Source of the DNA: Haliotis cracherodii
Lineage: Eukaryota
Direction: 5' to 3'
Assembly: GCF_022045235.1 (NCBI RefSeq)
Contig: NW_027266297.1
Coordinates: 5,580,001 to 5,644,000 of the forward strand
Length of the DNA: 64,000 nt
Under the pieces are notes generated by a model. The model did no database searches. It was not told where the DNA came from and saw only the letters and a list, made by a program, of their open reading frames with translations. Positions 20-22,934 of the stretch are shown piece by piece (position 1 is the stretch's first letter; every line of letters begins with the position of its first letter). The position numbers and the translations under genes are program-made.

Positions 20-260
20 TAGTTGCCATGGAGATGTAGCTCACGAATTTGTCATGGCAGTTGCCATAGTGATAACGTGAATCTTACCTCCCCAAAATGT
101 GTGTCATGACGGTTGCCAAAGTGATAATGTATATCTTACCTCCCCTGAATATTCATCATGACGACTGCCATAGTGATAACGCATAAATTATCTTTCCTGT
201 CCTGTATATTTATCATAACGGTTGCCATAGTGATAACCCATATCTTACCTCCCCAGCATA
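20..260. repeat. Degenerate about 55-bp tandem repeat containing copies of the exon-249 donor
   Basis: ttgccatagtgataa...atcttacctcccc recurs (81, 133, 242). Confidence 0.75.
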
Positions 261-433
261 CTTATATTGGTAGTTCAGTCCAAACATCTCCAGGGGTCCC
301 TTCATCTGAACCACAAACGCTCCGTTGTTGGTGAACGCAGCCTTGTCCTTCTTAAAATCAGGCTGCATTGACGCCGCGCTGATCGGGGTGATTGTGCAGT
401 TTCCCTGTACCTGGTCTATGTTGTAGGCGATAC
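249..433 (-). CDS. Gene 1 exon (GIAYNIDQVQGNCTI...YKYAGE); gene continues left of the window
   Basis: gttcag|...|gtaaga; 185 nt, phase 1 to 0. Confidence 0.88.
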
Positions 434-3400
434 CTGAACGGAAGTGACGTAATTCCTTAATCCTGATCAAAACATTGCATCCGTCTTTATGATAAGCCGA
501 GACATTTTCTAATATTTGACATACCACGCTTCACTCCTACCCAGGGGAGTTCCTTTTGGCAGACGTGGTACCTCTGCCACGGGCCATGGCCAGCGAGATA
601 AGATGATTCGTCAAATCTTACACAGTCCATTCAACAAATAACACATGTTTTTCATCCGATTCACTTTTGATAAACCTACACACTTAGATAAACATATGTC
701 ATGAAATGGTTAACTTTCATTGAGAAAATACCTTAAAACGTGAAAAACTATTTCCATTTGCGTATTTCTCCTTTGTTTAAATTTGTTTGTACGGCTCCAC
801 GTGCTGTCGTCGAAGCCCATGTTGAACTATCGATACGGTAACTTTGCTGTATAAAGATATATATTCATGCACCTATCTACTGCAGGTGTAGTATCATACA
901 TATATCTAATTATTTAATTATGCAAAGCAATAGGCCAAGCGCCTTCAACGACTTCCATCAAGCCCCTCTGCTCTGGGTTCAGAAAAGGCGCGTTTGTTTA
1001 AAAACAATAGAAACGTCGGTCACGTGATATGGTGATTAACCTTTGGCAGTTGTGTAATGCTGGGTCATCACTGCGCCGGAACGGCGAAACAATTGCTCTC
1101 TCGGACTTGTTCAAAGGCATGGTTTTTTTCAAATTAATGCTTGAAATCAACAGCACCTTCGCACGTTTAAGACCCAAATAAACTTGACCATTATTTGATT
1201 CCAGAAGACCCCAGCATTGCAAGGTTACCGACATAATAATTCTTGTTTGATTTAGCGTTAATCTACATACCCGTGTTGAAGTCGTGTACATACGTCATCG
1301 TGTACGGTGAGTAGAAGGGAGGAGGACTGGTGACGTCGCGGGTGTCGTACCGAGCCAGTTTGTACTTGGAATCATACCAAACCTAACGCCGAAATCAAGA
1401 AAACATATATATCAATTCTGGTAGAAGATAACATATAGGCACTGCAAAAGTCAGCCAAAGTTTAACCTCGTTAATCAGAACGATACTGTGCGTATTAAAC
1501 CTCTCCGTATTAACTGATTTCCCGATTAGTTACTAAGGACAGAGTAATAAATATTCTTGGAGTGGATAATCCATTTATAGGCGAGCGTTTCAAGTTTAAA
1601 CGGGGGTGATGGGTAGCCCAGTGGTTAAAACGTTCGCTCAACAAGCCGAAGACTCGGGTTCGATTCCCTACATGGGTACAATGTGTGTAGCCCTTTTCTG
1701 GTGTAACCTGCCGTGATATTGGTGGAATATTGCTAAAAGCGGCGTAAAGCCATACTCATACACTACTCCAGCTCAAACGTGCCTCATGCATAACGGATAA
1801 GTCGTTGACGTGACTGACTTAATACCTCTAATGGACAACGACGTCACATAATGTAAGTATTTTAACAGTATTCCAGTTATATCACGGCTTGTCAGCTTAA
1901 TGTGGAGAAAATCCAGAAGTGACGCGGGTCTCAGACGTTTGCCACTTTGGTTAAACCCATGAGCAGAGGTATGGTGCTGACAAACCCGGGAAATAACCGG
2001 AATTTGAATCCACAATCATAGGTTTCTGGCATGCCCAAGGGACACAACTAGTGAATTGCGGCGCCTCAGTCGAATCGGCCACCCGTGCCCCCACGTCGCA
2101 GAACAAGCCAAAGGAATTTTATGTATTGACCCTGAGTTCATTTGAGAGCTTGTACACAACGTACGTCATACATGCATTCAGCGAAATACAAATGCAGGTA
2201 TTTTTAACCGTATTTGCAAGTCACCAGATGGCCACAATTTCGCATTCACAACACCTCGTATATAAGTGGGGTGATTGCTTTAGCAACTATCGCCATTGTG
2301 GTAGTAGAGTATACTTAAATATCATGGACTCAACACTTAAATATGTTTTATATGAACATTATCATCCGGCCTCACTACTTACATCTACAGTGGTGGTGGT
2401 CTTCTTATTTGGTATGACGATCTCCATTCTGTAGGAAAACTGCTCCGGCATCGAGGGCAACGGCTTTGAATCCGTGTAGCCTGCGTAGTGAGTGAGTGAG
2501 TGAGTGAGTGGGTGGCTGGGTGGTTGGGTGGGTGTTTGGGTGAGTGAGTGAGTGAGTGAGTGAGTGAGTGGGTGGGTGGGTGAGTGAGTGAGTGGGTGGG
2601 TGAGCTGGTTGTTTTGTGGGATTTGGGTGATCAAGTGAGTGTGTGGATGAGTGAGTGTGTGTATGAGTGAGTGAACAAATGAGTGAGTGAGTGAATGGGT
2701 GAGTGAGTGAGTTAGTGGGTGAGTGTGTATAATGAGACGGTTACGAGCTGGTAATAATTAAAAAACCACTATCACTGGAAATCTTGGGTTCGAACCCACG
2801 TACAGTTTTCTGGCACGCCTAAGCGACGGAAACCTGCACAGCGAAGTTCAGTCTCCAATAGTACATACACGTATGTCATATCAGGTCTAGCTCATATAAT
2901 TAATAAATAAAACTCTATGATAATTATGTCAACATGTCCATATTGAACGATCAGCAGAGACAGAATTGGTAAAAACACCAAGTGTGTTATAAGCGTGAAT
3001 ATCGAATCTATGAGAAATGTATGTAATATTCTCGCTTACAGCTGAAGGCATACTAACGGACGATGCACTACAGGATTGTCATAAACTGCCGGGCAAAAGT
3101 ATGCATTTGTAAACAGGAGTTGACCAAACAATTACAAACTTGGCAGAAAACAGTCGCTTGTTGTGAGATACACATTAATATATGTGGCCTGAGATACTCG
3201 TATCAAATACAATGCCTTCGAATAGCCATTTCTTGTTTGTTTCATATTTAGCCACTCAGCAATATTCCAGCTATATGACGGCGGTATGGACAAGACAATC
3301 CAGTGACTGATATTATGAGCATCGATCCACGCATTTGGGATACGATGACATGCATCAGCCAAGACAGCGAGCCTGACCATCCGATCCCGTTAGTCACCTT

Positions 3401-6400
3401 TTACGACAAACATAGTCGCCTTTTACGGCAACTATGGGTTGCTGAAGACCTATACTACTCCGGATCTACACGGGTCTCACCACATGTAATCATAGCAGAT
3501 AAAGCATCATGGTGTGTAACTCACCGAAGTCGATGGATGTATATATGGCGCCGTATGTCCGGGTCTGGGCAGAGAAACAATTTAACCATTTAAATTGTGT
3601 TATATACCGGTCGATATAGAAATATTATGATACATTAATATTGCCACGTGTGTATATACCCACATGTGTCACAACATACATTTAGAAGATTAACCTTCTG
3701 CATTTTGAATTCTGATGTAGATTGTTATACCTCTTATTTTTATTTTGAGCCGAGCTTTTAGCCAAAAGTTTCAAATGTATAAATAAGAGGTATTAATCCA
3801 CAATGGGACTACATCAGATTTCAAAACACAGAAGGTTTATCTCCATTTTACCATTTTACGCTTTGAAAATGGCGCTCTCATGGAATGCGTAATCACACAT
3901 GGGTACAAGGTAGAACATTCGTCACAGGTTGTTCTAAATGTAACAAATATTACTACAGTTCAAGATTAAAATAATCATAGTCTTGACAAGTTCAAAAGAA
4001 CGGTTCAAAACACATAGCCTTTCAAAAAGTTTCAACCTGCTGCATGTTTGCACTCAATCAAGTCACATGCCCAGGTTGTAGAATTAATTTTGGAAAAACA
4101 TTCTGAACGAATATATGTCTCCTACAAACATTATTAAATAACCGAACTTTATAACCGATATTTAAAAGTTGTACTTATGTAGCAGTTGGTTTGAAATACT
4201 TCCTCAACAGTAATACATGTTAAGAATGACTTTCTCAGCACCCCTAAATTCGACCTGGCTGAAATTTAGCTGCCGACGACACAAAGGAGACCGTGTATTT
4301 TTGAGATTTGATGATTGTGTGGCCCCGGCGGTGGTCAGTGTGTGTTCTACTTCATTGTGTGGCCCCGAAGGTGGTCAGTGAATGTTCTTCTTCATTGTGT
4401 GGCCCCGGCGGTGGTCAGTGTGTTCTACTTCATTGTGTGCACGTGGCCTTAGCGGTGGTCAGTGTGTGTTCTACTTCATTGTGTGGCCCTGCGGTGGTCA
4501 CTGTGTGTTTTACTTCATTGTGTGGCCCTGGCGGGGGTCAGTGGGTGTTCTACTTAATTGTGTGGCCCCGGCGGTGGTCAGTGTGTGTTCTTCTTCATCG
4601 TGTGGCCTCAGCGGTGGTCATTGTGTGTTCTACTTCATTGTGTGGCCTCAGCGGTGGTCAGTGTGTTCTACTTCATTGTGTGGAACTGGCGGTGGTCAGT
4701 GTGTGTTCTACTTCATTGTGTGACCCCGGTGGTGGTCATTGTGTGTTCTACTTAATTATGTGGCCCCAGCGGTGGCCAGTGTGTGTTCTACTTCATTGTG
4801 TGGCCCTTGCTGTGGTCAGTGTGTGTTCTAGTTAATTGTGCGGCCCTGGCGGTGGTCAGTGTGTGTTCTACTTCATTGTGTGACCCTGCGGTGGTCAGTG
4901 AGTGTTCTACTTCATTGTGTGGAACTTGCGGTGGTCAGTGAGTGTTCTACTTCATTGTGTGGCCTTGCGGTGGTCAGTGTGTGTTCTACTTCATTGTGTG
5001 GCTCTAGCGGTGGGATATGGCGTAACACGGTTAAGGTGAATCCAGGCAATATCACTACTCCCATTGCTGACTGAATGTAGATTTCGGAATACTGGGCCGG
5101 AGTGGCAATACGTACCGATCCATCGTCTTCCGGTATATCGATCTGAACCTGGTTTTGGTACACCAGATCTGCCATATCGCCGTAGGCTTCTGAGATCGTC
5201 TTCTCGTGTGCAGTCTCAGGGTTCACGGTGCCTGTGATAGCACACGGAACAAGGGATATAGAGGAAAAGGCAGGAGAAGTCTTAGTCATATTATAGTTGG
5301 ATAGAGAAAGACGGATATGGTGTTGACAAGCAAACTATATCAATCGGCACTAGGCTAGGATTTGAAAAAAACGATCAGCGGATCCTGGCAAGAACTAGGG
5401 AGGCAACTCTTTACAGCGATTAGCAACCCGCGTGTTGCCCCAGGGGATGAGTTAAAAAGTCACGTATTATGAGTCACGTATCCAGCTTTATGACAGCAGT
5501 CTGTAATTTAATCCAGTCTGGACAAGACAGACCACTAACTGACATCAAGAGCATCGATCCACGAGCATCAGTGACAAAAATGTTGTCCGATGCAATTCCC
5601 TATTTTGACTTGTATCATATGTTCCCTTGTTTTTTTTCAGGTGAACAAATTACCTTGCCTTTGCTTGTGTTTGTGACGGGTACTACCGGTGTGGCAGGAG
5701 AAGCTCACCTTTTCGCGAACACCTGGGCCCACTTGCACAAAGCGATGTTAGCGCTACAACTATTGTAAGCCTATGTTAAAGTATGGGAGTTACGATCTTA
5801 GAGCTAAGATCGCTTTGTGCAAGTGGGTCCTGGTATCTTCACTATTTGATAGTGATCAATAAACACATGATCACGAAACAGTCGGAATCGTACTATCGAC
5901 TGCAGAGATTCCAATAGGATATGGGAAGGGATTTATTTCGCTTTATTTACAACACTTACGGGAGAAATGGTCACATGCACTCTGCTTGAGAACAGAGGCC
6001 CCGTCTCCAATATGAGCCTTGCTTAGTTTACACTTGTACCCGTCTAGTGGGCAGAAGTCGAAACTGCGGCACACGATAGCTTCGTTAGAAACACACAGGC
6101 CGGCGCATGTTATAGGATCCGAGATGTTGTTCCACACCATGTCGTCTGTCCTTTCGATCTCCGACTTTGGAACGTACGTGAATTGTGCTAAAATGTACAA
6201 ATTGAAATTAGAAAATTCTCAACGATTACAAAATCGATGAACGATGTTTTAGCAGTATTTCCGTCACAGCCCGGAGTGATACAGATCCTAGACATTAACA
6301 CTTTGGTAAAAAAACAACGAGCATGTGTATGAGATACATATTCAGAGTGGATCTGGAATTCGGACACGTGACTTCTGGAACGCCTAATGGACGCAACTCT

Positions 6401-9400
6401 GCAAAAGCTTCAACAATAATTGGAGCAGCTGCCTTTTCATGTAGTTAGATGTACCTACACATAGAACACATAGAGAATGGACAACCGAGGGACTGATAAC
6501 CCAAAGCTGGTCTATTTAGATACTGAGCTGACAAAGATACGGCGAGTGCCTACTCTAAAATGTATCTTTTTTCAATATGAAGATAAACTTGCTACCTGCC
6601 TTAAAGTAGTCACTTGATTATTGACATGGAATAAATTCGGGTATTAGAATACAGTGTCCCTTTTTCCCTGTCACATTCACTCCCCACCGCCCTTCACCCC
6701 ACTTCCACCACCTCTTTACCCCTGTGTCTCGCAGTTGTGTCTCACCCCTCTCAACCCGGTCACATGCACTCCCCACCGCCTTTCACCCCATTCCACCCAC
6801 CCTCACCCCCACCCCCACCCTCTTTACCCCTGTGTCTCGCTGTTGTGTCTCACCCCTCTCTCCACGTCATCACCCTCACTCCCAGCCCTCCCCGATACGT
6901 CTTCCTCGCCACCCAATCAACCAAATCAACCTTGACCTACCAGCTGGGGGTGTTCGGTCCACCAACGTCGCGCTGACGTACACGTTGGTGTTGTCGTACT
7001 CGACTCTCAAGCGCCCTATTCGGATGGGGTTGACGTCCATGGCCCCCATGAAAGTCAGGTGTGACTTCAGGATCAGAAGGTCCTCCTTGTCCCGGTTGAA
7101 CTGTTTGGGTGCTGAGAAGGAAACATCTAGAATATAATGGCAACCGCTGGATCACGTGATCATCACACATATCTAGTACATCCCTACGTTCGTTCGATTA
7201 TACGAAATTGAGGTTACCACGTTTCTGACGAGCAGGGCTGACTAGATTAACCAGTTAACCAGTGTTAATTATGGTTAAGTTTAGACACTTCCAGAAATAA
7301 ATTTATAGCATGACAAATTAACTAACCGAAAGGATCGGGTGGTCCTTAACGAGTAGAATAATAACTATGTTTGATAAAATAGTTAAGAAACGGTTATTCG
7401 ATGGTGTCAGGAACACTCTCGCGTTGTTAAACCTCGTCCATATGACAGCGTCCCATATGATACCTCTGAGACGTTCATACATTCACATCGGACAATAATT
7501 AGGGCTGTCACCATTACTCCCAAGGGACGCAACTCTGCACAGCGAATTGCGGCGCCCAAGACGATTGGGNNNNNNNNNNNNNNNNNNNNNNNNNNNNNNN
7601 NNNNNNNNNNNNNNNNNNNNNNNNNNNNNNNNNNNNNNNNNNNNNNNNNNNNNNNNNNNNNNNNNNNNNNNNNNNNNNNNNNNNNNNNNNNNNNNNNNNN
7701 NNNNNNGAACAGGTTATTTTGAAAAAGATAAACGACAATTATTTTAAAGAAATGTTTGAATAAACTACTAAGTGTTAGTCTAACCTTCGCCCAGGAGTTG
7801 GAACTGAACTGTGAAACCTAGTTTTTTCGTGTCAGGAAAACAGTCGGAAATATCGAACACGCTTAGAGATGGACTGTCTGCCACAAAATCCAAGAAGTTG
7901 TAAACCACGTGAAAGCCCACCTGTAAACAACGTGCAAACTCAATTCAATGAAACCTTATTTATCCGGATGATACGGTCGAAGAACTGAGTCAGGATGAAG
8001 AAATGAAACCTTGTTAATCCGGACGATTCCGTTCCCTAGAAAGAGTACAGATTAACAACTTTCCGGATTAACGGATTGTGGGTACTAAATTTCGTTGCAT
8101 ATTGTCACAGCGCAGTATTTCAGTTCCACGGCGTGTCAACGTCATGTGGTGATAAGCAGGCCTTAGACGTTTACCATTTTGGTAAAACTGATGCCGACAA
8201 ACCTGGAGAAATAATCGAGGCGAATAAATTCAAACCCACAATCAGAGACGCAATTCTGCACAGCGAATTGCGGTGCCTTAAACGACAGAGCAACCGATGC
8301 CCCTCCTTCCCGCTCTGATGGGAGAGACCGCCTCGGTGGTCTAATGGTAGAGCGTCCGCCCGGAAAGCAGAAGGTCGGGGGTTCGATCCCCAAAAGACGT
8401 TAAAGATGGTATTTGTTGTTACCCTGCTCGGCATAAAGGGGCTAAAACAAGGACTGGTCGTCTCGGAGTCAGTATACTGTGTCTAGGTGGGGTATTTATT
8501 TTAAACTGCGGCATGCTAGCACTATAAAATCGGCATTGGTCTGGACAAGTTCAAGCAGCCACACACACATGCATGCATGTCACTATATGAGTGCAATAAA
8601 CCTGGACGCGACGTTAAACCCCATTTCACCTTACCTCTTCTTTGACGAGAGAATGAGGGTCGCTAAGTTGAAATGGCGTTAACACACGACGACATTAATA
8701 AAACGTAATTCAAATTATCCTACATTTGGGTTGTTTCCTACAAGAAAATATATTTCATTCAACAATTACAAAGGTCACATACATCCAAAGCCGTTATTTC
8801 CAGACGAAAGGGAAAGCCGGTCTGGTATGTGCTGTATCCGACGTTGGGATCGTCCGACCATCCTTCCTGACGGAAATACGAGAAAAGAGACATTGAGACT
8901 GGTACACCAACAAACAGACAGACAGACAACAATAGAGAGATAGTAGCGGGCTTAAACTGGACGCAGTCTCTATTTTCAATATGAAATTGTAAATAAAATA
9001 CAAAATCCGAAATCCGTTTCACCGATACTGGTATATGATTTCTGGGGTGAATGCTCAAACACACTTTTTCTTCATAACTTTGTTTCAAATAATAATTTTG
9101 TTACTGCATTTATATATTTTTTGGTTGTGGGTGTAGTCAAGTTAAAATATGACAAAAAGGGGGTCAACCCCAAACAAATTGCAACAAAGACCATTTTACC
9201 TGCATACAACTTGGAATTGCTCACTTAACAACATATTAAAAGTTTACCAAAATCGGAGGAGTGGAACAGTGCCTAATTTGCATATATTCAAAATGGCCGC
9301 CATTCAAACTAATTGTGCCGGCTATATCTCGGGACCTCGGATAGGTCGAGACTTAATTCTGGTGTCTACACCCATGTTTGGGGGGGGGGGGGGGGGGGGG

Positions 9401-12400
9401 GTGTCAATGAATTTGACTATAACAGTATTTACAAGGAACTACCTCGGATTCTTCAATATACATTCAGGAAGAAGGATCAAGCTGGCACATTATCTGATAT
9501 TTACAAGAGTATTCATTGAGCTATCGAAACAATACCATGGAATTAGGATTCGGAACTTTGTATTTCTATGTCAGGTACACACCAACATGAACAGTCAGAG
9601 TCAAACTTGTTGTCAAGGAAACAGAAAAAATATAAATTCTAACAATCCCTAAATAGCAAAAGGCCCCAGATGACAAACTGGTCATATGTGTGCATAGTTT
9701 CAAAGAAGAATACCTATTTGTTTTAAAGATGTAGTCAAAGTCAAACTTCTTGCCATGGAAACAGGAAAAACATATCTAAATTCCTAAATAGCAAAAGGCA
9801 CCACTTCAAGCCCTGAATAATACATGTTCCAAGTTTGGTTCAAATAGATATAATTTTTTTAATTTGAAGTTTACACGATATACGGCTTTTCCATTGGACG
9901 AGAGGTCGGTCACGTGGCCGCGAAATTGACGTTCATAAGTGTATGAACGACACAATTTGACGTTCATACGTTTTTCGCGATAAAATGGCGTAAAAACTGA
10001 CGGACTACTTCCACATTCCTGGGGAAAGCCCTGGGAATTCCCTAGCAAGAAAACATACATAAGCGTTCTTTCTGATCATTTAGAACCTTTATTCTTGGTC
10101 TCAGCGTTTCAGTATACATTGAGAAAGAGAGGGTGACTGCATGATTGTTCACTAATATCCTCGCTGCGGCGTATCCTAATGAACAAACGAAGAAATACAC
10201 ATCTAAACTATCGTGGTATCGACTCAACCCGTGCCTAGGCTGACACTGACCGTCTCCAGAAATCAAATTGTGTTTAAAATAAAATTGTGTTTAGATTTTG
10301 GCCTACATCATTTGAGGTAAGAAACTGTGATAAAAAAATTATAAGAATTGACTTTCACTTTGTGTGAGTTCATTGGAGTATGAACCTTCATAGAGTGAGG
10401 GCCAAACTGTATGAACGTCTTAAATCCAGCTGCTCCTTCAGAGACTTATAACATCGGGAACACGTCAAAACAGCAGCATTCAGAAGCATTCCAATATGAG
10501 TATTCCAGAATAAGTGCACTCCACGTCCAGCAAAAAAGGTTCAACTTGCTGATGCAATTTGGAGTCTGATGCCTCAAGAATGTCCATACCGCCTGGAGAT
10601 GTGCAGTATGTCCTAGATGGAGGAGTTTGCTTCACAGAATCATATGAAGCCCAGGGTCAAAATATGATGAGATATGTTAGCAGTATGTCAAGTATGTGAA
10701 TAGACGCTGTGGTAAGCCAGTCGTGGTATTTGATGGTTATCTCAGCGGTCCAAGCAAAAAGGATACAACGCAACAGCGAAGAGCAGGATCACGAGTTGGG
10801 CCTCTGTACAAGTCTCAGACTCTATGGTCTTCGATGGAAAGAAGCAGGACTTTCTTTCCAATAAGGATAATAAGCAGAAGTTCATCACCTTGCTTGATGA
10901 ACATCTACGACATCATGGATGTCGCTCACACCATGTTAGGGTAGATGCTGATCTACTAATTGCGCAGACTGCCATTGGCACTGCTGAGACAAGAAAGATG
11001 ACTTAGATATCCTTATTCTGATCTGCTTCCACTCTGAGCTCCCCGCAACAAAGTTTTACCTTAGACCCGAACCTCGCTATGGTGCATAGAAGCAGCCAAG
11101 ATGTTGGAACATAGCTGTTCTCAAAGCACTTTCACGGTTTTGGAAAGGGAGTTGCACTAAACCTGATTCGCACTAACAAGTTCTTTCAGGAGCAAGCTGA
11201 GAGATTTGGAAATCCAAACAGCACCACGGCAGATATTATAGCTGCAGGCGAGAAAGCACTAGTTACCTTGTACAAAGGCAGGCCTGATGATAACTTTTCT
11301 TCACCTTCAGCGATTCCAGCAGAAGGTCAGCAGTAGTACAACAAAGCAGAAGCAGAAGTGAAAGCAGAAGTCCTTCCTCCAACCTCAGCAGCAGCTGTAT
11401 GGTATGCGCGTCTACTTCTAAGTACAGCAGTGGATGGGGAACGAAGATGAGATGTAAACCTACCGAGTAGGGTTGCTGTGAGAAAGCTGGAAAGTACATT
11501 CCTGTTCTTACAGACAAAGAAGCCGCCCCTAAACATCTCCTGAATGTAATAAGGTGCATGTAGCAACAAGCAGTGTACCTGCAGAGCAAATAGTCTTGAG
11601 TGTACCAACGGATGTGAAGTGTGTACAGGTGTATGTAAAAATGTCAGCGCAGTCCTTGAAGAAACTGAAGATGCAAATAAATGCAAAATTGATGCAAATT
11701 AAACATTATGAAAGGAACCAATGATATAAGTACTGTTAAACTTGGAATCTTTGACAAAAAAACCGTGTAGAGACACCAGAATTAGATCTCTGCCAGTATC
11801 AGATCCTAATGTATAGTTAATGGGTTCAAAATGGCCTCCATTTTGAATTTATGCAAATTAGGCATAAAGAAATGATCCAGCTATTACAATATTATTTATA
11901 ATTGAAAACATGGTTGTAGACACCAGAATTACATCTCTGCCATCACCACCTACGAAGATATACTAAAAAATGATGGTTTCAAAAAAGCCGCCATTTTTAA
12001 TTTATGCAAATTAGGCACTTAGACATTACCCAACCATTAAAATACTGTTATAAATGAAATGGGTATAGACACCAGAATTAAGTCTCCACCAGTCTTAGAT
12101 CCCGAGATACAGGCAAACCCTTGCCAAATTAGTTTGAATGCGGGCATTTTGAAATTATGCAAATTAGACACTGTTCCACTACTCCGATTTGGGTAAACTT
12201 TTGATATGTTGTTTTGTGAGTTAATCCAAGTTATATGCAGGGCAAATTGTTTCTGTTGCAATTTGTTTGGGGTCAAATCATATTTTGACTAGATTAAAAG
12301 AGGTAGATGTAAGCAGATGGTTAGATATATACCAACGCCGAGACGAATTAATAGAGGTAGATGTATGTAGATAGGTAGATATATCGAGACGGATTAATAG

Positions 12401-15400
12401 AGGTAGATGTTTGTAAATAGGTAGATATAGAGCACCGAGACGGATTAATAGAGGTAGATGTTTGTAGATAGGTAGATATGTACCATCGCGACGGATTAAC
12501 AGAGGTAAATGTAAGTAGAAAGGTAGATATATACTATCGAGGCGGATTAATAAAGGTAGATGTATGTAGATAGGTAGATATAGAGCATCGAGACGAATTA
12601 ATAGAGGTAGATGTAAATAGAAAGGTAGATATATAACATCGAGACGGATTAATAGAGGTAGATGTATGTAGATAAGTAGATATGTAGCACCTTGACGGAT
12701 TAATAAAGATAGACGTATGTAGATAGGTAGATATATACCATCGAGACGGATAAATAGAGGTAGATATAAGTAGGTAGGTAGATATATAGTTAGGAAATGA
12801 ATCAGTTAGCGAAGATGCATGTATTTAGGCAGTTATCTAACAACGAGAAGGATTACTGGGTGGAGAAACAGAGGCTTCTACATCTACATTTACAAAGTTC
12901 AAAAAGTAGATTAAGTAGATAATTACGTGATAGGACATTTTTATATAAAAAAAGCCAAACACTAAGAATATTTCATTTTAGTTTTGACTTAGTTACGTTC
13001 ATGGACATCATCCGCCGAAGGAAAAACTCAACGTACAGACAGGAAGTAGTATTCGAAGGTCACATTGACACCGGGAGTGTTGGGAATTCTGAAATCTGAC
13101 CTCACAGAAGTGTACACGTCACAGAGGGCATCACGTGCATACCGCTGAAAATATGAATTCAACATTAAAAATGTATGTCAGTTAAGAGGTCGCAGCACTG
13201 AAGAAGGCCAAAGTTCATATAACAGCATTACACGTATTAAAGGGAGTCATCAAGCGATACCTAAAAGCTGGAGGACCTAATGTAACATGTGACCTGTCTT
13301 AACAGGACACCTGTGTTATGTCATGTGAAGATACAAATAGCACAATGGTGTAAACCTTGCTTGGAATTATAATTAGAGACTGAGATTAGTCTTGATGACT
13401 TTTAATGCCCAAAATCTTGTTGCCATCCTTGACTAATTTACAGAGATGGAAATGTGCGCCTCTCATCAATGGACACTGAGTAAAGTCGCTATTGCATCAT
13501 CAAATTATTGTCCATTCCAGACTAGATACGCTGAATGACCAACACGTTTGACACAAAATTGTCAGATATAGTGATCTAAAACAGACGGAAAGGACTAGTC
13601 TGGTATTGATCAGAACCAGTGAACGACTGATCAGAACTAGTGGACGACTGATCAGGAGAAGTGGATTTATGATCAGGACTAGTGGATGACTGACAAGGAC
13701 TAGTGGGTTATTGATCAGAACTAGTGAATGACTGATCAGGACCGGTGAACGACTGATCAGGACTAGTGAAGGAGTGATCAGGACTAGTGGATGACTGATC
13801 AGGAATAGTGAACGACTGATCAGGACTAGTGAACGGCTGATAAGGACTAGCTTATATAGTGGACGACTGATAAGGACTAGTGGACGACTGATCAGGACAA
13901 GTGGGTTATTGATCAGGACTAGTGAAGGACTGATAAGGAGTAGTTGACGATTGATGAGGGCTATTTATCAGAGCTAGTGAATCACTGATCAGGACTAATG
14001 GATGACTGATCAGGACAAGTGGACGACTGATAAGGACTAGTGGTTTATTGATCAGAACCAGTGAACGACTGATCAGAACTAGTGGACGACTGATCAGGAC
14101 AAGTGGATGACTGATCAGGACAAGTGGACGACTGATAAGGACTAGTGGGTTATTGATCAGAACCAGTGGACGACTGATCAGGACAAGTGGATGACTGATC
14201 AGGACAAGTGGACGACTGATAAAGACTTGTAGGCTATTGGTCAGAACCAGTGAACGACTGATCAGAACTAGTGGACGACTGATTAGGACAAGTGGACGAC
14301 TGATAAGGACTAGTGGACGACTGATCAGGACTAGTGAAGGTGTGATCAGGACTAGTGGATGACTGATCAGGACTAGTGAACAACTGATCAGGACCAGTGA
14401 ACGACTGATAAGGACTAGTGGACGACTGATAAGGACTAGTGGACGACTGATCAGGACTATTGGGTTATTGATCAGAACTACTGGACGACTGACAAGGACT
14501 AGTGGGTTATTGATCAGAACCAGTGGACGACTGATCAGGACTAGTGGACGACTGATCAGGACTAGTGAACGACTGATCAGGACTAGTTGATGACTGATAA
14601 GGACTATTGGATTTATGATCAGAACTAGTAAACGACTGATCAGGACTAGTGGACGACTGATAAGGACTAGCGGGTTATTGATAAGGACTAGTGGGTTATT
14701 GATCAGAACTAGTGGACGACTGATCAGGACTAGTGGGTTATTGATAAGGACTAGTAGGTTATTGATCAGAACTAGTGAACGACTGATCAGGACTAGTCGA
14801 CGACTGATAAGGACTAGTGGTTATTGATCAGAACTAGTGGACGACTGATCAGGACTAGTGGACGACTGATCAGGACTAGTAGACGACTGATCAGGGCTAC
14901 TGGGCGACTGGTCAGGACCAGTAGACGACTGATCAGGGCTAGTGGAGTATTCACCTGAAGCAACAACGTCAACTGACCTGTCCTGAGAAGGTGTAGTTGC
15001 TGTTGAGAGAGAAGAACTGCAGAGGGTTCTTCATTTGTAGAGTGAAGGAGCCATTCTGTTTGTAAGCCGGGGTATTCATCATGTCGTCAAAAGAACCGTT
15101 GACCAATGGAAGCACTGAACAGTTACCTGTCACCTGATCCCGGACATAACGGACACCTGGACATACACACATATAGGCATAACGGACACCTGAACATACA
15201 CATATATAGAAGTAGCGGACACCTCGACATACACACATATAGACATAGCGGGCACCTGGACATACACACAAATAGACATAGCGGACACCTGGACATACAC
15301 ACATATAGACATAGCGGGCACCTGGACATACAAACATATAGACATAGCGGGCACCTGGACATACAAACATATAGACATAGCGGACAACTGGACATAGACA

Positions 15401-18400
15401 CATGTAGACATAGCAGACACCTGGAAATACGCACATATAGGCATAACGGACACCTGGACATACACACATATAGACATAGCGGACACCTGGACATACACAC
15501 ATATAGACATAGTGGACACCTGGACATACACACATATAGAAGTAGTGGACACCTGGACATACACACATATAGACATAGCGGGCACCTGGGCATATACACA
15601 TATAGACATAGCGGACACCTGGACATACACACATATAGGCATAGCGGGCACCTTGACATACACACATATAGACATAGCGGACACCTGGACATACACACAT
15701 ATAGGCATAGTGGACACCTGGACATACACACATATAGACATAGCGGGCACCTGGACATACAGACATATAGACATAGTGGACACCTGGACATACACACATA
15801 TAGGCATAGTGGACACCTGGACATACACACATATAGACATAGCGGACACCTGGACATACACACATATAGACATAGTGGGCACCTGGACATACTTACATAT
15901 AGACATAGTGGGCACCTGGACATACACACATATAGGCATAGTGGACACCTGGACATACACACATATAGACATAGCGGGCACCTGGACATACACACATATA
16001 GACATAGCGGGCACCTTGACATACACACATATAGACATAGTGGACACCTGGACATACACACATATAGGCATAGCGGACACCTGGACATACACACATATAG
16101 ACATAGCGGGCACCTGGACATACACACATATAGGCATAGTGGATACCTGGACATACACACATATAGACATAGCGGACACCTGGACATACACACATATAGA
16201 CATAGCGGGCACCTTGACATACACACATATAGACATAGTGGACACCTGGACATACACACATATAGACATAACGGACACCTTGACATACACACATATAGAC
16301 ATAGCGGGCACCTGGACATACACACATATAGGCATAGTGGATACCTGGACATACACACATATAGACATAGCGGGCACCTTGACATACATACATATAGACA
16401 TAGCGGGCACCTTGACATACACACATATAGGCATAGCGGGCACCTTGACATACACACATATAGACATAGCGGGCACCTGGACATACACACATATAGACAT
16501 AGCGGGCACCTTGACATACACACATATAGACATAGTGGACACCTGGACATACACACATATAGACATAGCGGGCACCTGGACATACACACATATAGACATA
16601 GCGGGCACCTGGACATACACACATATAGACATAGCGGGCACCTTGACATACACACATATAGACATAGTGGACACCTGGACATACACACATATAGACATAA
16701 CGGACACCTGGACATACACACATATAGACATAGTGGACACCTGAACATACACACATATAGGCATAACGGACACCTGGACATACACACATATAGACATAGC
16801 GGGCACCTGGACATACACACATATAGACAAAGCGGACATCTGGAACATTCCAAACAGTAGGAGACAGTGGGGATATTCTGATCAATATGGTATTGGGCAA
16901 TAGAAATGATATTATCATATCTGCTGGGGAGCAGGCGATCCGATCTCGTGGGTTCTAATGGTTGGAGTTTGTGGCACACGAGGCCGTTAAAGATGTCGAT
17001 GGTCAAATTCGAAATTTTGTAGCCAACGTCACAGATATCGGATAAAAGTACCTCTGTTGACACAGATGCACGAATTCTTCGAGGCATGCTTCTGATGAGA
17101 GTGAACCTCGATTCGTCAGAAAAAAAATTACATTAGCCCAATGGCGATTATCCCAGTGCTCAGGTATCCCACACAACTGATGCGTCCTCAGTTGTTTAAA
17201 TGGCATTATGTGTGATCGAGATAGATTAATACACCAGAAGTTGTGAGGACATGCTTACCGTAGTTGAAGTCGTGTATCTCAGTTATTGGGTTTAGAGTGT
17301 TGATGGAATCTGACATTGACGTGGGCCTGTGGTCGACTCTAAGGTACTTGCTGTCAGAATTGTACCAAATCTAGAAATCAGGAAGCAGAGTTTTAATATG
17401 GTGTCGAACTAACTCACTCACTCACTCAAATATGTTTAACTGCCCCCGTAAGACCCTCATGTTACTCTCTAACCATGAACCTACATCAGCATGCATTATA
17501 ATTCCGTCCGCACCCTACGGTACTAACATACTCTCATCTTACTTTTTAACCCTGAACCTACATCGTCTAAGGCGCCGCGATTCGCTGTGCAGAGTTGCGT
17601 CCCTTATGAATGCCAGAAACCTATGATTGTGGGTTCGAATCCTGGTTCGCCCCGATTATGTTTCTAGGTTTGTAATACTCTCTAACCCTGAACGTACATC
17701 AGCCTGTATCATCATATCGTCCGCACCTCACAATACCCCCACCCCTCATCTTACTCTCTAACCCTGAACATACAACGGCCTACATTATAATTTGCCGCAC
17801 CTCACGATACCTCCACCCCTCACCTTACTCTCTAACCCTGAACATACAACGGCCTACATTATAATTTGCCGCACCTCACGATACCTCCACCCCTCATCTT
17901 ACTCTCTAACCCTGAACATACAACGGCCTCCATTATAATTTGCCGCACCTCACGATACCTCCACCCCTCATCTTACTCTCTAACCCTAAACATACAACGG
18001 CCTACATTATAATTTGCCGCACCTCACGATACCCCCACCCCTCATCTTACTCTCTAACCCTGAACATACAACGGCCTACATTATAATTTGCCGCACCTCA
18101 CGATACCCCCACCCCTCATCTTACTCTCTAACCCTGAACATACAACGGCCTCCATTATAATTTGCCGTACCTCACGATACCCCCACCCCTCATCTTACTC
18201 TCTAACCCTGAACATACAACGGCCTACATTATAATTTGCCGCACCTCACAATATCGCCACCCCTCATCTTACTCTCTAACCCTGAACATACAACGGCCTA
18301 CATTATAATTTGCCGTACCTCACAATACCCCCACCCCTCATCTTACTCTCTAACCCTGAACATACAACGGCCTCCATTATAATTTGCCGCACCTCACAAT

Positions 18401-21400
18401 ACCCCCACCCCTCATCTTACTCTCTAACCCTGAATATACAACGGCCTACATTATAATTTGCCGTACCTCACGATACCCCCACCCCTCATCTTACTCTCTA
18501 ACCCTGAACATACAACGGCCTCCATTATAATTTGCCGCACCTCACAATACCCCCACCCCTCATCTTACTCTCTAACCCTGAACATACAACGGCCTACATT
18601 ATAATTTGCCGCACCTCACGATACCCCTAGCCCTCATCTTACTCTCTAACCCTGAACCTACATCAGCCTGCATTATTAGATCGTCCGCAACGTCAATGAT
18701 TTCCTGGCGGTAATAGTAGTTTGTGGGCATTTGGGGTAACTTCTCTGTGTTCACTCTTCCCGGGCACTCCACATTGTTGGGCGTCTGAAAGAATCCGATA
18801 CAACGACATATTAGCTGGAGAAAAGGTAAATCCTTTAGACTTAAATATGCGGAACATATACTGACCGCCAATAGAAACGCGACCATAGAAACATAGGGAG
18901 AAGTATATGCGTTAAGAAGAGGTGTTTCCAATGTGTTTCAATTAATGACAAAACAAATAATCAGTCAAGTGTTACCATGGTATCCTTAATCTTATCACGA
19001 AAAGCTGCCCGTGATTTCCAAACTTTACACGCTAATCCTGCACTAGACAAAAGATGCACCTGGAGTCATGGACCTATGACATCACATGTGATGCGTTTAT
19101 CAGCGTCGGTCCACACAAGATACCAGTATGTTAGTTTGTGCGTCGAAATCTAATATCTCTTGAATGTGAGCAGTTCTTCATATATTATTGAGTGGTATTC
19201 GTGTGGATAAAGGTGGGGTTGTGTATAAGGGGTTGGTGGTTGATTGGAGCTGCATCGTGGATTAGGGTAGGATGGGTTGGGGTGTTAATCCTGTAATCTT
19301 CTTAATGGCTTTCCTTTTTTTCAGGGGCTCCGTGAACGTTCAGGCCATTTTTTTTCAAAATACGTTGTATCAATATCTAAAAGGTAAAATGCATCTACTT
19401 TCATACCCTGTCAATGTCTAAAGTTGTAAAGTTTTCGAGAAACAGATTCGATGTCAATGTACCTGAAATATAGACGAATCAACGTCGGAGTCGGCCCTGA
19501 AGTCAAAGTAGTCGTAGACGTGGTGGAACGTCCTCGGGGTGGAGCCGTTAGTGAAGGTCTGTTCCCCTTGCATTTCGATCCTAACCGGAACCATCACGTG
19601 GGTTGATGACGTGGACCAGTTAGAGGCTGGTGAAACGCCAAAGGTGAGTACATGAAGTCACCAAGAATGGTTATTTTGACTAGTTATTTAGAAATAGTTA
19701 TAATAACGTTACCCGCATTTTAAATAGCCATAAGAAGTTGCTATTACTCGACGAGGATAGGGTGGAGAGAGAATAATAGCTTTGCTTAAGTTGGTTTTCA
19801 TTTCTATTTTTCTAGCTATTGTTTCGCTTGCAATATGTACAATGCTCTTATTTAGAAGTCTTGGTAAACTAGGATGTGAGTTGTGACACAAAATAGGCAG
19901 AATAAACCAATAACTGCAAGGTTATGCGTTCTGAACACCTTTAATAAGGCAAGACAACAGTTATCTACGCATGTGTATAGTTACAGAAATTAACGGTTAT
20001 ATGCGCGTGTGCAGTAACACAAAGTAATAGTTATCGGCACAAGTGTAGTAACACAAATTAACAGTTATCTGCACATGTGTAGTAACACAAATTAACAGTT
20101 ATCTGCACATGTGTATAGTTACAGAAATTAACAGTTATCTGCACATGTGTAGTAACACAAATTAACAGTTATCTGCACATGTGTAGTAACGCAAATTAAC
20201 AGTTATCTGCACATGTGTAGTAACACAAATTAACAGTTATCTGCACATGTGTAGTAACACAAATTAACAGTTATCTGCACATGTGTAGTAACACAAATTA
20301 ACAGTTATCTGCGCATGTGTATAGTTGCAGAAATTAACAGTTATCTGCGCATGTGTAGTAACACAAATTGACAGTTATCTGCACATGTGTAGTAACACAA
20401 ATTAACAGTTATCTGCGCATGTGTAGTAACACAAATTAACAGTTATCTGCGCATGTGTATTAACATAATTAACAGTTATCTGCACGTGGGTAGTAACACA
20501 TGTGAACATGTTATGTGACAAAGTTGCTTCACCTGTGAAGTAGTGGTCAAGGGTGAAGTTGGTGTTGGCTGTGGCCCAGAACATACACGTCTGCCAGTGT
20601 ACGGTGGGGAGACCACGGGTGGTGCTGTAGCCTTTGAACACCTGCAACATGACAATGTTTAAATATGCCAATAAATAACAGCAAAACCGTTTCCATATTC
20701 ATAAGAAATCTCTGCCCTGATTCCGACTATATCATGAGCAGCTGTTTATGAATCAAATCATGATGATACCACGTGTTCATGAAAAGGCGAGCTTTGGCTG
20801 TCCCATCGGTGGCACCCGTCACAAACACATGCGAAGGCAAGTAAATTATAAGTAAAATAGGGAATTGCATCATTAGGAAACACAGGGAACAATAGGATAC
20901 ACAATTATCTTTAAGCATGTACGGTCTTAAACATTTTTATCGCGTCTTTTGCACGTTCCTGTTACATGATGATGATGTGAATACATTACCGGTCCTCTTT
21001 GAGACCCGAATCGAAGAGCCTCTGCAGCTGGTGGTATATGGCTCCGCCCATCCGTGACGTCATCGCCAAACAGATTCATTTCATTGGACGTTGTGAGATT
21101 CACGACCTGACAATGTGACTCTGCAACAACATAAGTTGATTTGAAACTGATGCTTCCATTTATGATCATGTATCCATCAAATGTTATACAATTATGGTTA
21201 TAAATTAAATTGGTCAATTAAAGAAGACACTCTCTGAGTTGATTGCGAACTGAGTGTTAAAATATAGAGTAATAGACCAACTCTTGTACAACTTGAAGAA
21301 GTAAACATCCTTTATTCACTGACTATTTCAGTGTAATAATTATTTACACACGCACCTGAGTCAATATTAAAAATCTCGCCGGTATTATAGCTGTAGATGG

Positions 21401-22934
21401 AACGGGACTCCATGCCGTTTGCAAAAAATTTTATTAAGCCGTTGTTGCCGTCGAAGTCGAGATATTGTTCGGCGTCCATTGTGTAGCCTTTGTCCATCAA
21501 GTTGACCTCCACGTGTGCCTGGAACGACTGGAACGACATGTCCGGCAGAGGAGGGTCTGCACGGTGGACAATGGGCAAAAATAACATGTGATACAAGGAA
21601 GGATCGTAAACCCTAACGCAGTTAGTGAGTGTCTCGTGGCACGTGTCCAACAAGTTCTAACGTAGATTAGTGAGTATCTCGTACCACGGGTCCGTCAAGT
21701 TATAACGTAGGTTAGTGAGTGTCTGGTATCATGGATCAAACACGTTATAATGTAGATTAGTGAGTGTCTCGTACCAAAGGTCTAACAAGTTATAACGTAG
21801 ATTAGTGAGTGTCTCGTGCCATGGATCAAACACGTTATAACGTAGATTAGTGAGTGTCTGGTGCCATGGATCCAACACGTTATAATGTAGATTAGTGAGT
21901 GTCTCTTACCAAAGGTCTAACAAGTTATAATGTAGATTAGTGAGTGTCTCGTACCAAAGGTCAAACAAGTTATAATGTAGATTAGTGAGTGTCTCGTACC
22001 AAAGGTCTAACAAGTTATAATGTAGCTTAGTGAGTGTCTCGTACCAAAGGTCTAACAAGTTATAATGTAGATTAGTGAGTGTCTCGTGCCATGGATCCAA
22101 CACGTTATAAAGTAGATTAGTGAGTGTCTTGTACCATGTGAGACTCTCTTTCGGGTTTGGCCCAGCAAGTTATAAAGTAGGTTGGTGAGACTCTCTTTCG
22201 GGTTTGGCCCAGCAAATTATAAAGTAGGTTTGCGAGCATCTCGGCCAAAGGGTCAAACCATGTATAAGAAGTTTGTGTGCAGCGTGTGTCTGACGGACCC
22301 GATATGGTATGGAGTGTACGAATGGTTCACCTGACGGACCCGACATGGTATGGAGTGTACGAATGTCTCACCTGACGGACCCGATATGGCATATAGTATA
22401 CGAGTGTCTCACCCGAAGGGCCCGATATGGTATGTAGTATACGAGTGTCTTACCTGACGGACCCGATATGGTATGGAGTGTACGAATGGTTCAACTGACG
22501 GACCCGATATGGTATGGAGTGTACGAATGGTTCACCTGACGGACCCGATATGGTATGGAGTGTACGAATGGTTCACCTGACGGACCCGATATGGTATGTA
22601 GTATACGAACGTCTCACCTGACGGACCCGATATGGTATGTAGTATATGAATGTCTCACCCGACGGACCCGATATGGTATGGAGTGTACGAATGGTTCACC
22701 TGACGGACCCGATATGGTATGTAGTATACGAATGTCTCACCTGACGGACCCGATATGGTATGTAGTATACGAATGTCTCACCTGACGGACCCGATATGGT
22801 ATGTAGTATACGAATGTCTCACCTGACGGGCTTGGCATGGTACCTGGACCCCCAGTACAGAAGGGCGTGAGGGAAGACACCCCGCTGCCACACAGCCACA
22901 CCCAGGTCACCAGCACTGACACTCGCCGTGACAT
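249..22934 (-). CDS. Multi-exon gene, 3'-incomplete in window: secreted/surface protein with tandem ependymin-related (LolA-fold-like) repeats and a PAN/Apple domain. Coding exons: 22934-22823, 21556-21356, 21120-20990, 20641-20533, 19626-19463, 18784-18662, 17370-17259, 15156-14978, 13144-13037, 8866-8783, 7920-7785, 7111-6941, 6187-5960, 5231-5116, 3564-3525, 2480-2383, 1382-1271, 433-249
   Basis: All 18 exons have AG/GT boundaries and matching phases, giving 2409 nt (803 codons) without a stop. N-terminal hydrophobic signal MSRRVSVLVTWVWLCGSGVSS. Internal repeat with identical exon phasing: IWYNSD...EIHDFNY/GVRYVRDQVTGNC...MKNPLQFF versus VWYDSK...YVHDFNT/GIAYNIDQVQGNC...MKGPLEMF. Apple motif CAGLC...CRSFDFC...CKLS...CDHF. 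Family naming is from motif recognition, not a database search. Confidence 0.88.
1271..1382 (-). CDS. Gene 1 exon (VWYDSKYKLARYD...YVHDFNT)
   Basis: cgttag|...|gtatgt; 112 nt, phase 0 to 1. Confidence 0.88.
1602..1770 (+). mobile_element. SINE family A copy
   Basis: Diverged copy of 44111-44278. Confidence 0.8.
2383..2480 (-). CDS. Gene 1 exon (GYTDSKPLPSMPEQFSYRMEIVIPNKKTTTTVD)
   Basis: acgcag|...|gtaagt; 98 nt, phase 1 to 0. Confidence 0.85.
2487..2725. repeat. (GAGT/GGGT)n microsatellite abutting the exon 2480 acceptor
   Basis: Direct reading. Confidence 0.9.
3525..3564 (-). CDS. Gene 1 small exon (TRTYGAIYTSIDF)
   Basis: tctgcccag|...|gtgagt; 40 nt; supplies the phase 0 to 1 bridge needed between the neighbouring exons. 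Confidence 0.75.
3687..3842. mobile_element. Hairpin (fold-back) MITE-like element
   Basis: agattaaccttctg..ttttgaa.tctgatgtag versus ctacatcaga.ttcaaaa..cagaaggtttatct. Confidence 0.55.
4310..5010. repeat. About 40-bp minisatellite, about 17 copies
   Basis: ttgtgtggccccggcggtggtcagtgtgtgttctacttca. Confidence 0.95.
5116..5231 (-). CDS. Gene 1 exon (RTVNPETAHEK...IDIPEDDGS)
   Basis: tcacag|...|gtacgt; 116 nt, phase 1 to 0. Confidence 0.82.
5726..5829. mobile_element. Same palindromic MITE, inserted into another dispersed repeat, CTG TSD
   Basis: acCTG|ggcccacttgcacaaagcg...cgctttgtgcaagtgggtc|CTGgtatc. An uninterrupted relative of the host repeat lies at about 20760-20830 (opposite strand). 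Confidence 0.75.
5960..6187 (-). CDS. Gene 1 exon encoding the PAN/Apple domain
   Basis: ttttag|...|gtaagt; 228 nt, phase 1 to 1; CAGLC-x6-CRSFDFC-x6-CKLS-x14-CDHF. Confidence 0.9.
6941..7111 (-). CDS. Gene 1 exon (APKQFNRDKED...VNPIRIGRLRVEYDNTNVYVSATLVDRTPPA); an alternative in-frame acceptor would start the exon at 7126
   Basis: ttctcag|...|gtaggt; 171 nt, phase 1 to 1. Confidence 0.82.
7570..7706. other. Assembly gap
   Basis: Run of N. Confidence 1.
7785..7920 (-). CDS. Gene 1 exon (VGFHVVYNFLDF...VFDISDCF...FQLLGE)
   Basis: ttacag|...|gttaga; 136 nt, phase 0 to 1. Confidence 0.83.
8327..8637 (+). mobile_element. SINE family B copy
   Basis: Colinear with 56528-56885. Confidence 0.8.
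8783..8866 (-). CDS. Gene 1 exon (EGWSDDPNVGYSTYQTGFPFRLEITALD)
   Basis: cgtcag|...|gtatgt; 84 nt, phase 0 to 0. Confidence 0.8.
9134..12291 (+). mobile_element. Decayed, internally deleted Academ (AcademX-type) DNA transposon inside a gene 1 intron
   Basis: Termini TAGTCAA...TTGACTA; about 240-bp imperfect TIRs (9134-9378 versus 12058-12291); internal frameshifted XPG/PIN-like and Cys-rich remnants. No TSD recognised. Confidence 0.72.
10490..11650 (+). pseudogene. Academ-type ORF remnant (XPG-like nuclease region plus C-terminal CxC zinc finger)
   Basis: Fragments VQYVLDGG, VVVFDGY..GPSKKD, FLSNKDNKQKFI, DADLLIAQTA, AGEKALVTLY, LPPTSAAA, APKHLLNVIRC, CTCRANSLECTNGC across frameshifts and stops. 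Confidence 0.75.
12292..12790. repeat. About 50-bp minisatellite
   Basis: gagacggattaatagaggtagatgtatgtagataggtagatata... Confidence 0.9.
13037..13144 (-). CDS. Gene 1 exon (RYARDALCDVYTSVRSDF...FEYYFLS)
   Basis: tttcag|...|gtacgt; 108 nt, phase 0 to 0. Confidence 0.85.
13605..14945. repeat. 21-bp minisatellite, about 60 copies
   Basis: gactgatcaggactagtggac. Confidence 0.95.
14978..15156 (-). CDS. Gene 1 exon (GVRYVRDQVTGNCSV...MKNPLQFFSLNSNYTFSGQ)
   Basis: gtccag|...|gtcagt; 179 nt, phase 1 to 0; paralogous to exon 433-249. Confidence 0.87.
15140..16845. repeat. 33-bp minisatellite, about 52 copies, unit spans the exon-15156 acceptor
   Basis: ggacacctggacatacacacatatagacatagc. Confidence 0.97.
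17259..17370 (-). CDS. Gene 1 exon (IWYNSDSKYLRVDH...EIHDFNY)
   Basis: ttctag|...|gtaagc; 112 nt, phase 0 to 1; paralogous to exon 1382-1271. Confidence 0.88.
17690..18700. repeat. 74-bp minisatellite, about 13 copies, unit spans the exon-18662 donor
   Basis: ccctcatcttactctctaaccctgaacatacaacggcctacattataatttgccgcacctcacgatacccccac. Confidence 0.95.
18662..18784 (-). CDS. Gene 1 exon (TPNNVECPGRVNTEKLPQMPTNYYYRQEI...MQAD)
   Basis: tttcag|...|gtaggt; 123 nt, phase 0 to 0. Confidence 0.87.
19463..19626 (-). CDS. Gene 1 exon (ASNWSTSSTHVMVPVRIEMQG...HHVYDYFDF...SSIFQ)
   Basis: caccag|...|gtacat; 164 nt, phase 1 to 0. Confidence 0.87.
19955..20500. repeat. 33-36-bp minisatellite
   Basis: gtagtaacacaaattaacagttatctgcacatgt. 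Confidence 0.95.
20533..20641 (-). CDS. Gene 1 exon (VFKGYSTTRGLPTVHWQTC...LDHYFT)
   Basis: ttgcag|...|gtgaag; 109 nt, phase 0 to 1. Confidence 0.87.
20990..21120 (-). CDS. Gene 1 exon (ESHCQVVNL...ALRFGSQRGP)
   Basis: ttgcag|...|gtaatg; 131 nt, phase 1 to 0. Confidence 0.85.
21356..21556 (-). CDS. Gene 1 exon (DPPLPDMSFQSFQAHVEVNLMDKGY...GEIFNIDS)
   Basis: gtgcag|...|gtgcgt; 201 nt, phase 1 to 1. Confidence 0.88.
21620..22140. repeat. 45-bp minisatellite
   Basis: gttataatgtagattagtgagtgtctcgtaccaaaggtctaacaa. Confidence 0.93.
22287..22830. repeat. 41-bp minisatellite, about 13 copies, unit spans the exon-22823 donor
   Basis: cctgacggacccgatatggtatgtagtatacgaatgtctca. Confidence 0.95.
22823..22934 (-). 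CDS. Gene 1 exon with signal peptide (MSRRVSVLVTWVWLCGSGVSSLTPFCTGGPGTMPSPS)
   Basis: gtacag|ATG ... CCGTCAG|gtgaga; 112 nt, ends phase 1. Confidence 0.8.

Follow-up and report, generated by a model that had tools for sequence, protein, structure and literature searches.

How far can the splice junctions of a gene be reiterated as minisatellites within its own introns, and what becomes of the splice signals that are multiplied in this way? This question is raised by a stretch of 64,000 nt from the abalone Haliotis cracherodii (assembly GCF_022045235.1, contig NW_027266297.1, positions 5,580,001 to 5,644,000), hereafter called the window and numbered from its first nucleotide. A preliminary description claimed that a gene located in its left part carries five minisatellites built from the exon–intron boundaries of this gene. 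The data presented here show that four of these arrays are tandem copies of the junctions that they adjoin. They are probably neutral minisatellites of the 'mirage' kind reported from amphioxus, whose extra signals would normally be skipped.

Arrays were called with Tandem Repeats Finder (TRF), and a 30-nt probe spanning each junction was scored against its own array, with the 29 other junctions of the same type, shuffles and core-fixed shuffles as comparisons. The claim stands for donors 22823, 18662 and 249 and for acceptor 15156, and fails for the array at 19956–20500. The same gene has two further junction arrays beyond the left edge of the window. The features identified by TRF and probe (plus, for the outlying copies, the position of one copy) are as follows.

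22290 to 22829, minus strand: 41-bp junction minisatellite of 13.2 copies, whose unit comprises the last 8 exon nt, donor 22823 and the intron start
17676 to 18676, minus strand: 74-bp junction minisatellite of 13.5 copies, donor 18662, about 30 exon-like nt per unit
17455 to 17565, minus strand: older outlying 74-mer copies (one at 17485), separated from the rest of the array by a SINE-like (short interspersed nuclear element-like) insert of high copy number
15143 to 16844, minus strand: 33-bp junction minisatellite of 51.6 copies, whose unit comprises the intron end, acceptor 15156 and about 13 exon nt
47 to 265, minus strand: decayed 52–57-bp junction minisatellite of 4.1 copies, donor 249
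19956 to 20500, minus strand: 34-bp intronic minisatellite of 15.9 copies near donor 20533, junction origin unsupported
C34:5577611-5578186, left of the window: 47-mer in 12 copies at an acceptor of the same gene
C34:5567486-5568089, left of the window: 77-mer in 8 copies, with 59 exon nt, at a donor of the same gene

Each of the four in-window junction probes outscores all 29 other junctions of its type (shuffle p 0.001, core-fixed p 0.001–0.004; 0.002 for the 41-mer and 0.004 for the 52–57-mer). For the six arrays as a whole, the score against the own junction is 34–60 and that of the best of the 29 other junctions 18–28, with core-fixed p values of 0.001–0.016. Their units measure 33, 41, 47, 52–57, 74 and 77 bp, and they occupy four donors and two acceptors among the 60 splice sites of the gene. 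The banks of decoy splice sites proposed in the preliminary description are real: GT or AG is kept in most copies, i.e. in 11 of 12 decoys of the 41-mer, 13 of 13 of the 74-mer, 50 of 50 of the 33-mer, 2 of 3 of the 52–57-mer, 9 of 11 of the 47-mer and 6 of 7 of the 77-mer, the last of which also yields seven extra tblastn matches to the end of a PAN exon. The real site is the exon-proximal end copy in all six arrays, as had been claimed; this pattern is largely built in, since an array of which another copy was used would count as exon.

In spite of its 13 intact GTs, the 74-mer has weakened interior copies. They share a diverged exon part that matches the real exon end at 17 of 30 positions, compared with 25 of 30 for the distal copy and 24 of 30 for the outlying copy at 17485. 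An insert at about 17563–17670, which has a very high contig depth, interrupts this array; it may be SINE-like, which is our own reading rather than a match to a repeat library.

The 34-mer was rejected as junction-derived. The array ends 32 nt before reaching donor 20533. The distance from this donor to the first look-alike is 47 nt instead of one period, and the array is out of register. Its match to the junction probe (score 21, 15 of 24 positions) has a p value of 0.020 with plain shuffles and of 0.227 with core-fixed shuffles. None of its seven look-alike donors reaches the 5th percentile of real donors (median score 1.4 vs 7.2 for real ones). Similarly, six further near-junction arrays of the gene (21-, 40-, 45-, 45-, 51- and 82-mers, 25–248 nt away from a junction) show no match to the junction (core-fixed p 0.24–0.85). 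Arrays starting 22–106 nt from a splice site that they do not contain are found at 13607–14946, 21622–22230 and 4314–5013, with three more left of the window; they belong to a broader clustering of minisatellites around exon edges.

The boundaries that delimit these arrays were established from proteins. After addition of a 100 kb flank on each side, a gene model was built by tblastn and junction refinement with P0003 from Haliotis rufescens (1430 aa) and P0004 from H. asinina (1420 aa; species as named by the source), two proteins retrieved using one exon as query, both of which carry PF25898 and PAN domains. Where one protein was diverted at a junction, the junction given by the other was adopted. 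The model contains 30 introns and a spliced coding sequence of 4257 nt without internal stop, which aligns with P0003 and P0004 as a single gap-free block (1391 of 1418 residues, 98.1%, and 1152 of 1416, 81.4%, identical, respectively). The five exon boundaries named in the preliminary description (249, 15156, 18662, 20533 and 22823) are all present in it. The predicted protein of about 1420 aa has a LolA-like/ependymin-related domain (PF25898), five PAN domains (PF00024) and a hydrophobic C-terminal segment; it holds two blocks about 33% identical to each other, as well as repeated PAN exons.

1 to 22934, continuing about 17 kb left of the window, minus strand: host gene (Haliotis protein models; PF25898 and five PF00024)
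22823 to 22934, minus strand: coding exon, donor copied in the 41-mer (gene model)
20533 to 20641, minus strand: coding exon adjoining the 34-mer (gene model)
18662 to 18784, minus strand: coding exon, donor copied in the 74-mer, spliced to 17259–17370 in RNA-type contigs (model and contigs)
17259 to 17370, minus strand: coding exon separating the 74-mer intron from the 33-mer intron (model, and contigs covering 17257–17370)
14978 to 15156, minus strand: coding exon, acceptor copied in the 33-mer (gene model)
249 to 433, minus strand: coding exon, donor copied in the 52–57-mer (gene model)

Are these boundaries the ones used in RNA? They were searched in four contig sets from four studies with four organism codes (X1, X2, X4 and X8), whose RNA type is presumed rather than on record, and such assembled contigs drop rare transcript forms. 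The exon at 17257–17370 is covered by one contig per run in all four runs. In X2 and X8, a single contig joins it directly to 18662–18784 (contig positions 3400–3513/3514–3636 and 2392–2505/2506–2628, respectively), and a loose end at 18662 in X2 reads as the next exon. In X4, contig pieces start at 18662 and, in X1, spliced contigs break at this position. The joint at donor 18662 is direct in two of the four runs and consistent in the other two. In all four, a contig also runs past donor 17259 unbroken and the intron 19463–18784 is bridged. Of the boundaries named in the preliminary description, that at donor 18662 thus agrees with the RNA-type contigs, and the other sites are supported by protein models, on which boundary 20533 also rests. 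Taken together, the most upstream donor appears to be used in the 74-mer, according to the contigs, and in the 41-mer and 52–57-mer, according to the protein models. Alternative use of decoys was seen neither at contig resolution nor in either Haliotis protein model, and no decoy joint occurs among the loose ends listed for the contigs.

Could the decoys nevertheless be functional? They might be used or selected as splice-site banks, for instance to produce variable Cys-rich insertions through the acceptors of the 33-mer, to bind additional U1 or to serve as back-up donors. The decoy acceptors of the 33-mer keep the frame and meet no stop over 22 units, so that their use would insert an 11-residue Cys-rich repeat, and 36 of 50 score at least as high as the real acceptor with matrices trained on 367 SLC6 introns. 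Moreover, the pseudo-donors nearest to the real site are partly used in human 6-16 and CBS (two in each case, according to passages of PMC1557585). However, neither protein model contains an insertion, and the single contig that continues past donor 17259 in each run is unbroken. Decoys at least equal to the real site are 5 of 12 in the 41-mer, 0 of 13 in the 74-mer and 2 of 3 in the 52–57-mer; the 74-mer result depends on the matrix, as its distal copy outscores the real donor when the matrix is derived from the sites of the gene itself. The frame-keeping decoys of the other five arrays lead to a premature stop in all 11 cases tested.

The genes sampled for the frequency estimate given below provide a broader view of these decoys. 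Among them, 637 of 704 decoys have an intact GT or AG, i.e. they are not purged. Retention is 0.93 vs 0.90 at base-matched positions (p 0.052), a trend in the direction expected for selected decoys; an earlier test that gave p 0.001 was set aside as biased. The decoy GT and AG are thus neither purged nor clearly conserved in these genes. The median decoy is stronger than the real site in 0 of 37 arrays (weaker in 17, equal in 20), and the array periods, distributed as 10, 19 and 11 over the three classes modulo 3 in 40 arrays, indicate no preference for multiples of three and no frame selection. In view of these data, functional banks appear quite improbable and the decoys look silent.

The route to exon extension or intron gain that had been suggested is not borne out either, as neither outcome was seen. 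The introns that carry the 74-, 33-, 52-, 47- and 77-mers match the sister internal repeat of the protein in position and phase (about 33% protein identity), and are therefore older than their arrays. The 41-mer intron, which follows exon 22823, has no counterpart in the sister repeat and lies outside this comparison; five of the six array introns thus predate the arrays.

Is this gene exceptional, or do abalone minisatellites cover splice junctions more often than expected? Junction arrays were counted in 79 regions of 18–20 kb comprising 691 introns, chosen by protein family (SLC6, myosin head) and not by repeats; 60 regions served for discovery and 19 SLC6 regions were held out. SLC6 loci were taken from the list of a profile search, and introns were called in all regions by a profile-based spliced aligner. 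The myosin protein search gave class II only, so an iterated profile served to model the unconventional myosins; P450 loci were left out of the count for having few introns. In SLC6, only introns located at one of 13 positions common to the paralogs and not adjoining an exon shorter than 40 nt were retained, which removed 115 of 482 introns from the discovery set and 75 of 235 from the hold-out; myosin introns were filtered by local score (96 of 265 dropped). Five introns were dropped after inspection, as the aligner had placed a false exon inside an array. To count as a junction array, a repeat needed both a TRF overlap with the junction and a copy of the probe found exclusively on the intron side. 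For the null, the seed of each array was placed with uniform probability along introns in which every array had been reduced to a single unit, and was allowed to straddle a junction.

Of the 186 intronic arrays in all data, 40 extend across a junction vs 14.0 expected (2.9-fold, P 1e-8), which corresponds to 40 of 1382 splice sites (2.9%) in 26 of the 79 regions. The excess over chance on which the preliminary description depended is thus found in genes chosen independently of their repeats. It amounts to 25 of 101 arrays vs 7.9 expected in the SLC6 discovery set and to 7 of 35 vs 2.4 (P 0.013) in the SLC6 hold-out. A looser null using only the probe still gives an approximately 2-fold excess (33 of 734 sites vs about 2.2–2.4% of random intron positions). 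The least favourable null, placement within the same intron (25 vs 16.4), was set aside because long arrays fill the intron and touch its edge under any placement. In two SLC6 paralogs with 90% identity (C2:40.54-40.59 Mb), the same intron carries a common donor array; this leaves perhaps 39 independent arrays and indicates that a mirage can outlast gene duplication. The gene of the window, with 6 of 60 sites, exceeds the discovery rate (P 0.011) but had been selected, and the SLC6 region C41:79001-99000 is denser, as four of its 18 scored sites carry a junction array; the host gene of the window is a rich example and no outlier.

These figures bear on a rival explanation, according to which arrays land anywhere in a minisatellite-rich genome and some happen to hit junctions. 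In its favour, arrays account for 15% of the surrounding 264 kb, this window is one selected among many, the 34-mer fits this explanation, and the null uses collapsed intron lengths that are inflated by recent transposon insertions. Nonetheless, 40 spanning arrays vs 14 expected, replicated in the hold-out and persisting under the looser null, make pure chance highly improbable.

What, then, generates the excess? The preliminary description left the choice between nucleation at junctions and mere tolerance of arrays that regenerate an intact site. Tolerance permits the arrays and yields the neutral rate at most, so that the 2.9-fold excess needs a bias of origin or survival near exon edges; both seem to contribute. 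Non-spanning arrays that end at most 100 nt from an exon are 64 vs 36 expected, whereas those more than 400 nt away are 30 vs 67. Much of the excess is thus a general pull to exon edges, which, we infer, reflects old, deletion-protected DNA; GC alone predicts an excess of approximately 1.2-fold.

Several results weigh against the neutral reading as a whole. Direct splicing evidence is confined to donor 18662, and sites 15156, 249 and 22823 rest on predicted proteins. In X1, the exon continues into the 74-mer in a contig of 95 nt with a depth of 3.7 (window 18530–18691), beside array-unit contigs at a depth of about 40; this read-through may be unspliced RNA, DNA or some intron retention. The slightly better conservation of decoy GT and AG given above also counts against neutrality, and the myosin genes give weak support by themselves (8 of 50 spanning vs 4.0 expected, P 0.049). 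Finally, donors show an excess that a general edge bias does not explain: in discovery, 24 arrays span a donor and 22 lie within 100 nt of one (P 0.0005). As a separate observation, those parts of the neighbouring intron that are free of multi-copy repeats have no coverage in X1.

The excess at donors would be expected if duplications arose preferentially across splice sites, above all 5' ones, as a consequence of transcription or splicing, for example by pausing, R-loops or breaks at exon ends. Donor-spanning arrays of the discovery set exceed expectation far more than acceptor-spanning ones (24 vs 5.9 and 9 vs 5.9, respectively), as they do in all data (28 vs 7.0 and 12 vs 7.0; 28 vs 12, P 0.017), and four of the six arrays of the host gene are at donors. 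However, the comparison of spanning arrays with those in the next 100 nt gives only P 0.043 when donors and acceptors are pooled. Furthermore, a donor bias and a near-acceptor excess, both present in the 60 discovery regions, had been predicted in advance for the hold-out, where four donors and three acceptors were found and the near-acceptor excess was not repeated. Standing counts, moreover, cannot tell origin from survival. The donor-over-acceptor bias is therefore a lead only, and a junction-specific origin seems rather unlikely.

According to the model of neutral mirages, a short duplication straddling the junction would be copied into the intron side and would grow, either by slippage or through unequal exchange; the copies at the ends would escape homogenization. 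Splicing would keep the exon-proximal site by first-donor scanning and by exon definition across introns of about 0.8 kb; the mRNA being unchanged, selection would let the array persist. The excess would be due mostly to minisatellites in general arising or surviving more readily in the old, constrained and slightly GC-richer DNA of exon edges. Such a mirage would retain one undeletable copy and would require no function.

This arrangement is already known and named, and the approximately 3-fold, sample-based enrichment is the one addition made here. In amphioxus, as described in passages of PMC3087553, mirages of globin (including BflGb6 and BflGb9) and Adh3 genes have units of 10–160 bp and duplicate 5' and 3' boundaries with no splicing interference; edge copies are excluded from homogenization and a model of intron gain was proposed. 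Troponin C and PGBD5 were added in PMC3902484. Like these, the abalone units span a boundary of their host (four of the five claimed and the two outside the window), their lengths fall in the reported range, and the 74-mer has a homogenized interior (17/30) and spared edges (24–25/30). They differ in belonging to a mollusc and not to a cephalochordate, and in reaching six arrays in one gene with up to 51 copies. Their frequency is also estimated (about 3% of sites, about 2.9-fold), whereas the amphioxus passages (PMC3087553, PMC3902484) give none.

Human counterparts are the variable number of tandem repeats (VNTR) loci in F7 intron 7 (37 bp), CBS intron 13, 6-16 intron 2, LMNB2 and PDGF intron 4, in which, according to passages of PMC1557585, the first monomer spans the exon–intron boundary and the donor is reiterated. 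The most upstream donor is normally used in F7, LMNB2 and PDGF, and first-donor scanning was shown for F7. The three donor arrays in the window resemble the F7 type in both respects, with the most upstream donor apparently used. Unlike the human VNTRs, which in these passages are donor-side and one per gene, the abalone gene also has acceptor-side arrays and, unlike 6-16 and CBS, pseudo-donor use was not seen in it at contig resolution. Human segmental duplications carry variable internal tandem repeats that are likewise located at exon–intron boundaries and able to alter gene structure, giving new introns or alternative transcripts in young paralogs (passages of PMC2812944); in contrast, the abalone introns, where they could be compared, predate their arrays and no altered transcript was seen. 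The passages available on intronic minisatellites of earthworm and abalone (PMC12783039, PMC6905558) make no link to junctions, and a literature search, with most subscription journals outside its scope, found no count of such arrays in a mollusc.

If about 3% of abalone splice sites carry decoys, at approximately three times the neutral rate, then genomes rich in minisatellites and long introns commonly produce mirages as a by-product, and these are no lancelet curiosity. They offer many natural test cases for the choice of donors, and of the less studied acceptors, among identical sites. They can also mislead gene predictors, as when one of the 77-mer decoys was aligned as an exon in a first-pass spliced alignment. 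A stronger proposal, which we consider doubtful, is that new minisatellites form preferentially across abalone splice junctions, especially donors, owing to a process coupled to transcription or splicing that leaves near-perfect decoys at about 3% of sites. If true, the choice made by the spliceosome among as many as 50 identical sites would constitute a natural experiment at the scale of the genome, and an in-frame bank like that of the 33-mer would be ready for exon extension.

Other features of the window were noted. A decayed transposase-like coding remnant at 10400–11700, within a 4.2-kb intron of the host gene, is flanked by an apparent inverted repeat (about 9070–9230 and 12130–12290), both identified by eye. 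Three long genes of the FkbM-type methyltransferase family (PF05050), each a single open reading frame, are located at 29287–30456 (minus strand), 36266–37438 (minus strand) and 41807–43627 (plus strand), the first two of which look like near-identical tandem duplicates. A gene at about 52500–60650 (minus strand) encodes a KIAA1045-type RING finger (PF16744) and EF hands, and we take it to be PHF24-like; its long upstream intron holds three arrays (57686–58551, 59100–59994) which, by eye, are away from junctions. Elsewhere in the genome, C12:64.58-64.96 Mb carries about 15 tandem myosin-head genes, and the two that were modelled score like class II myosins.

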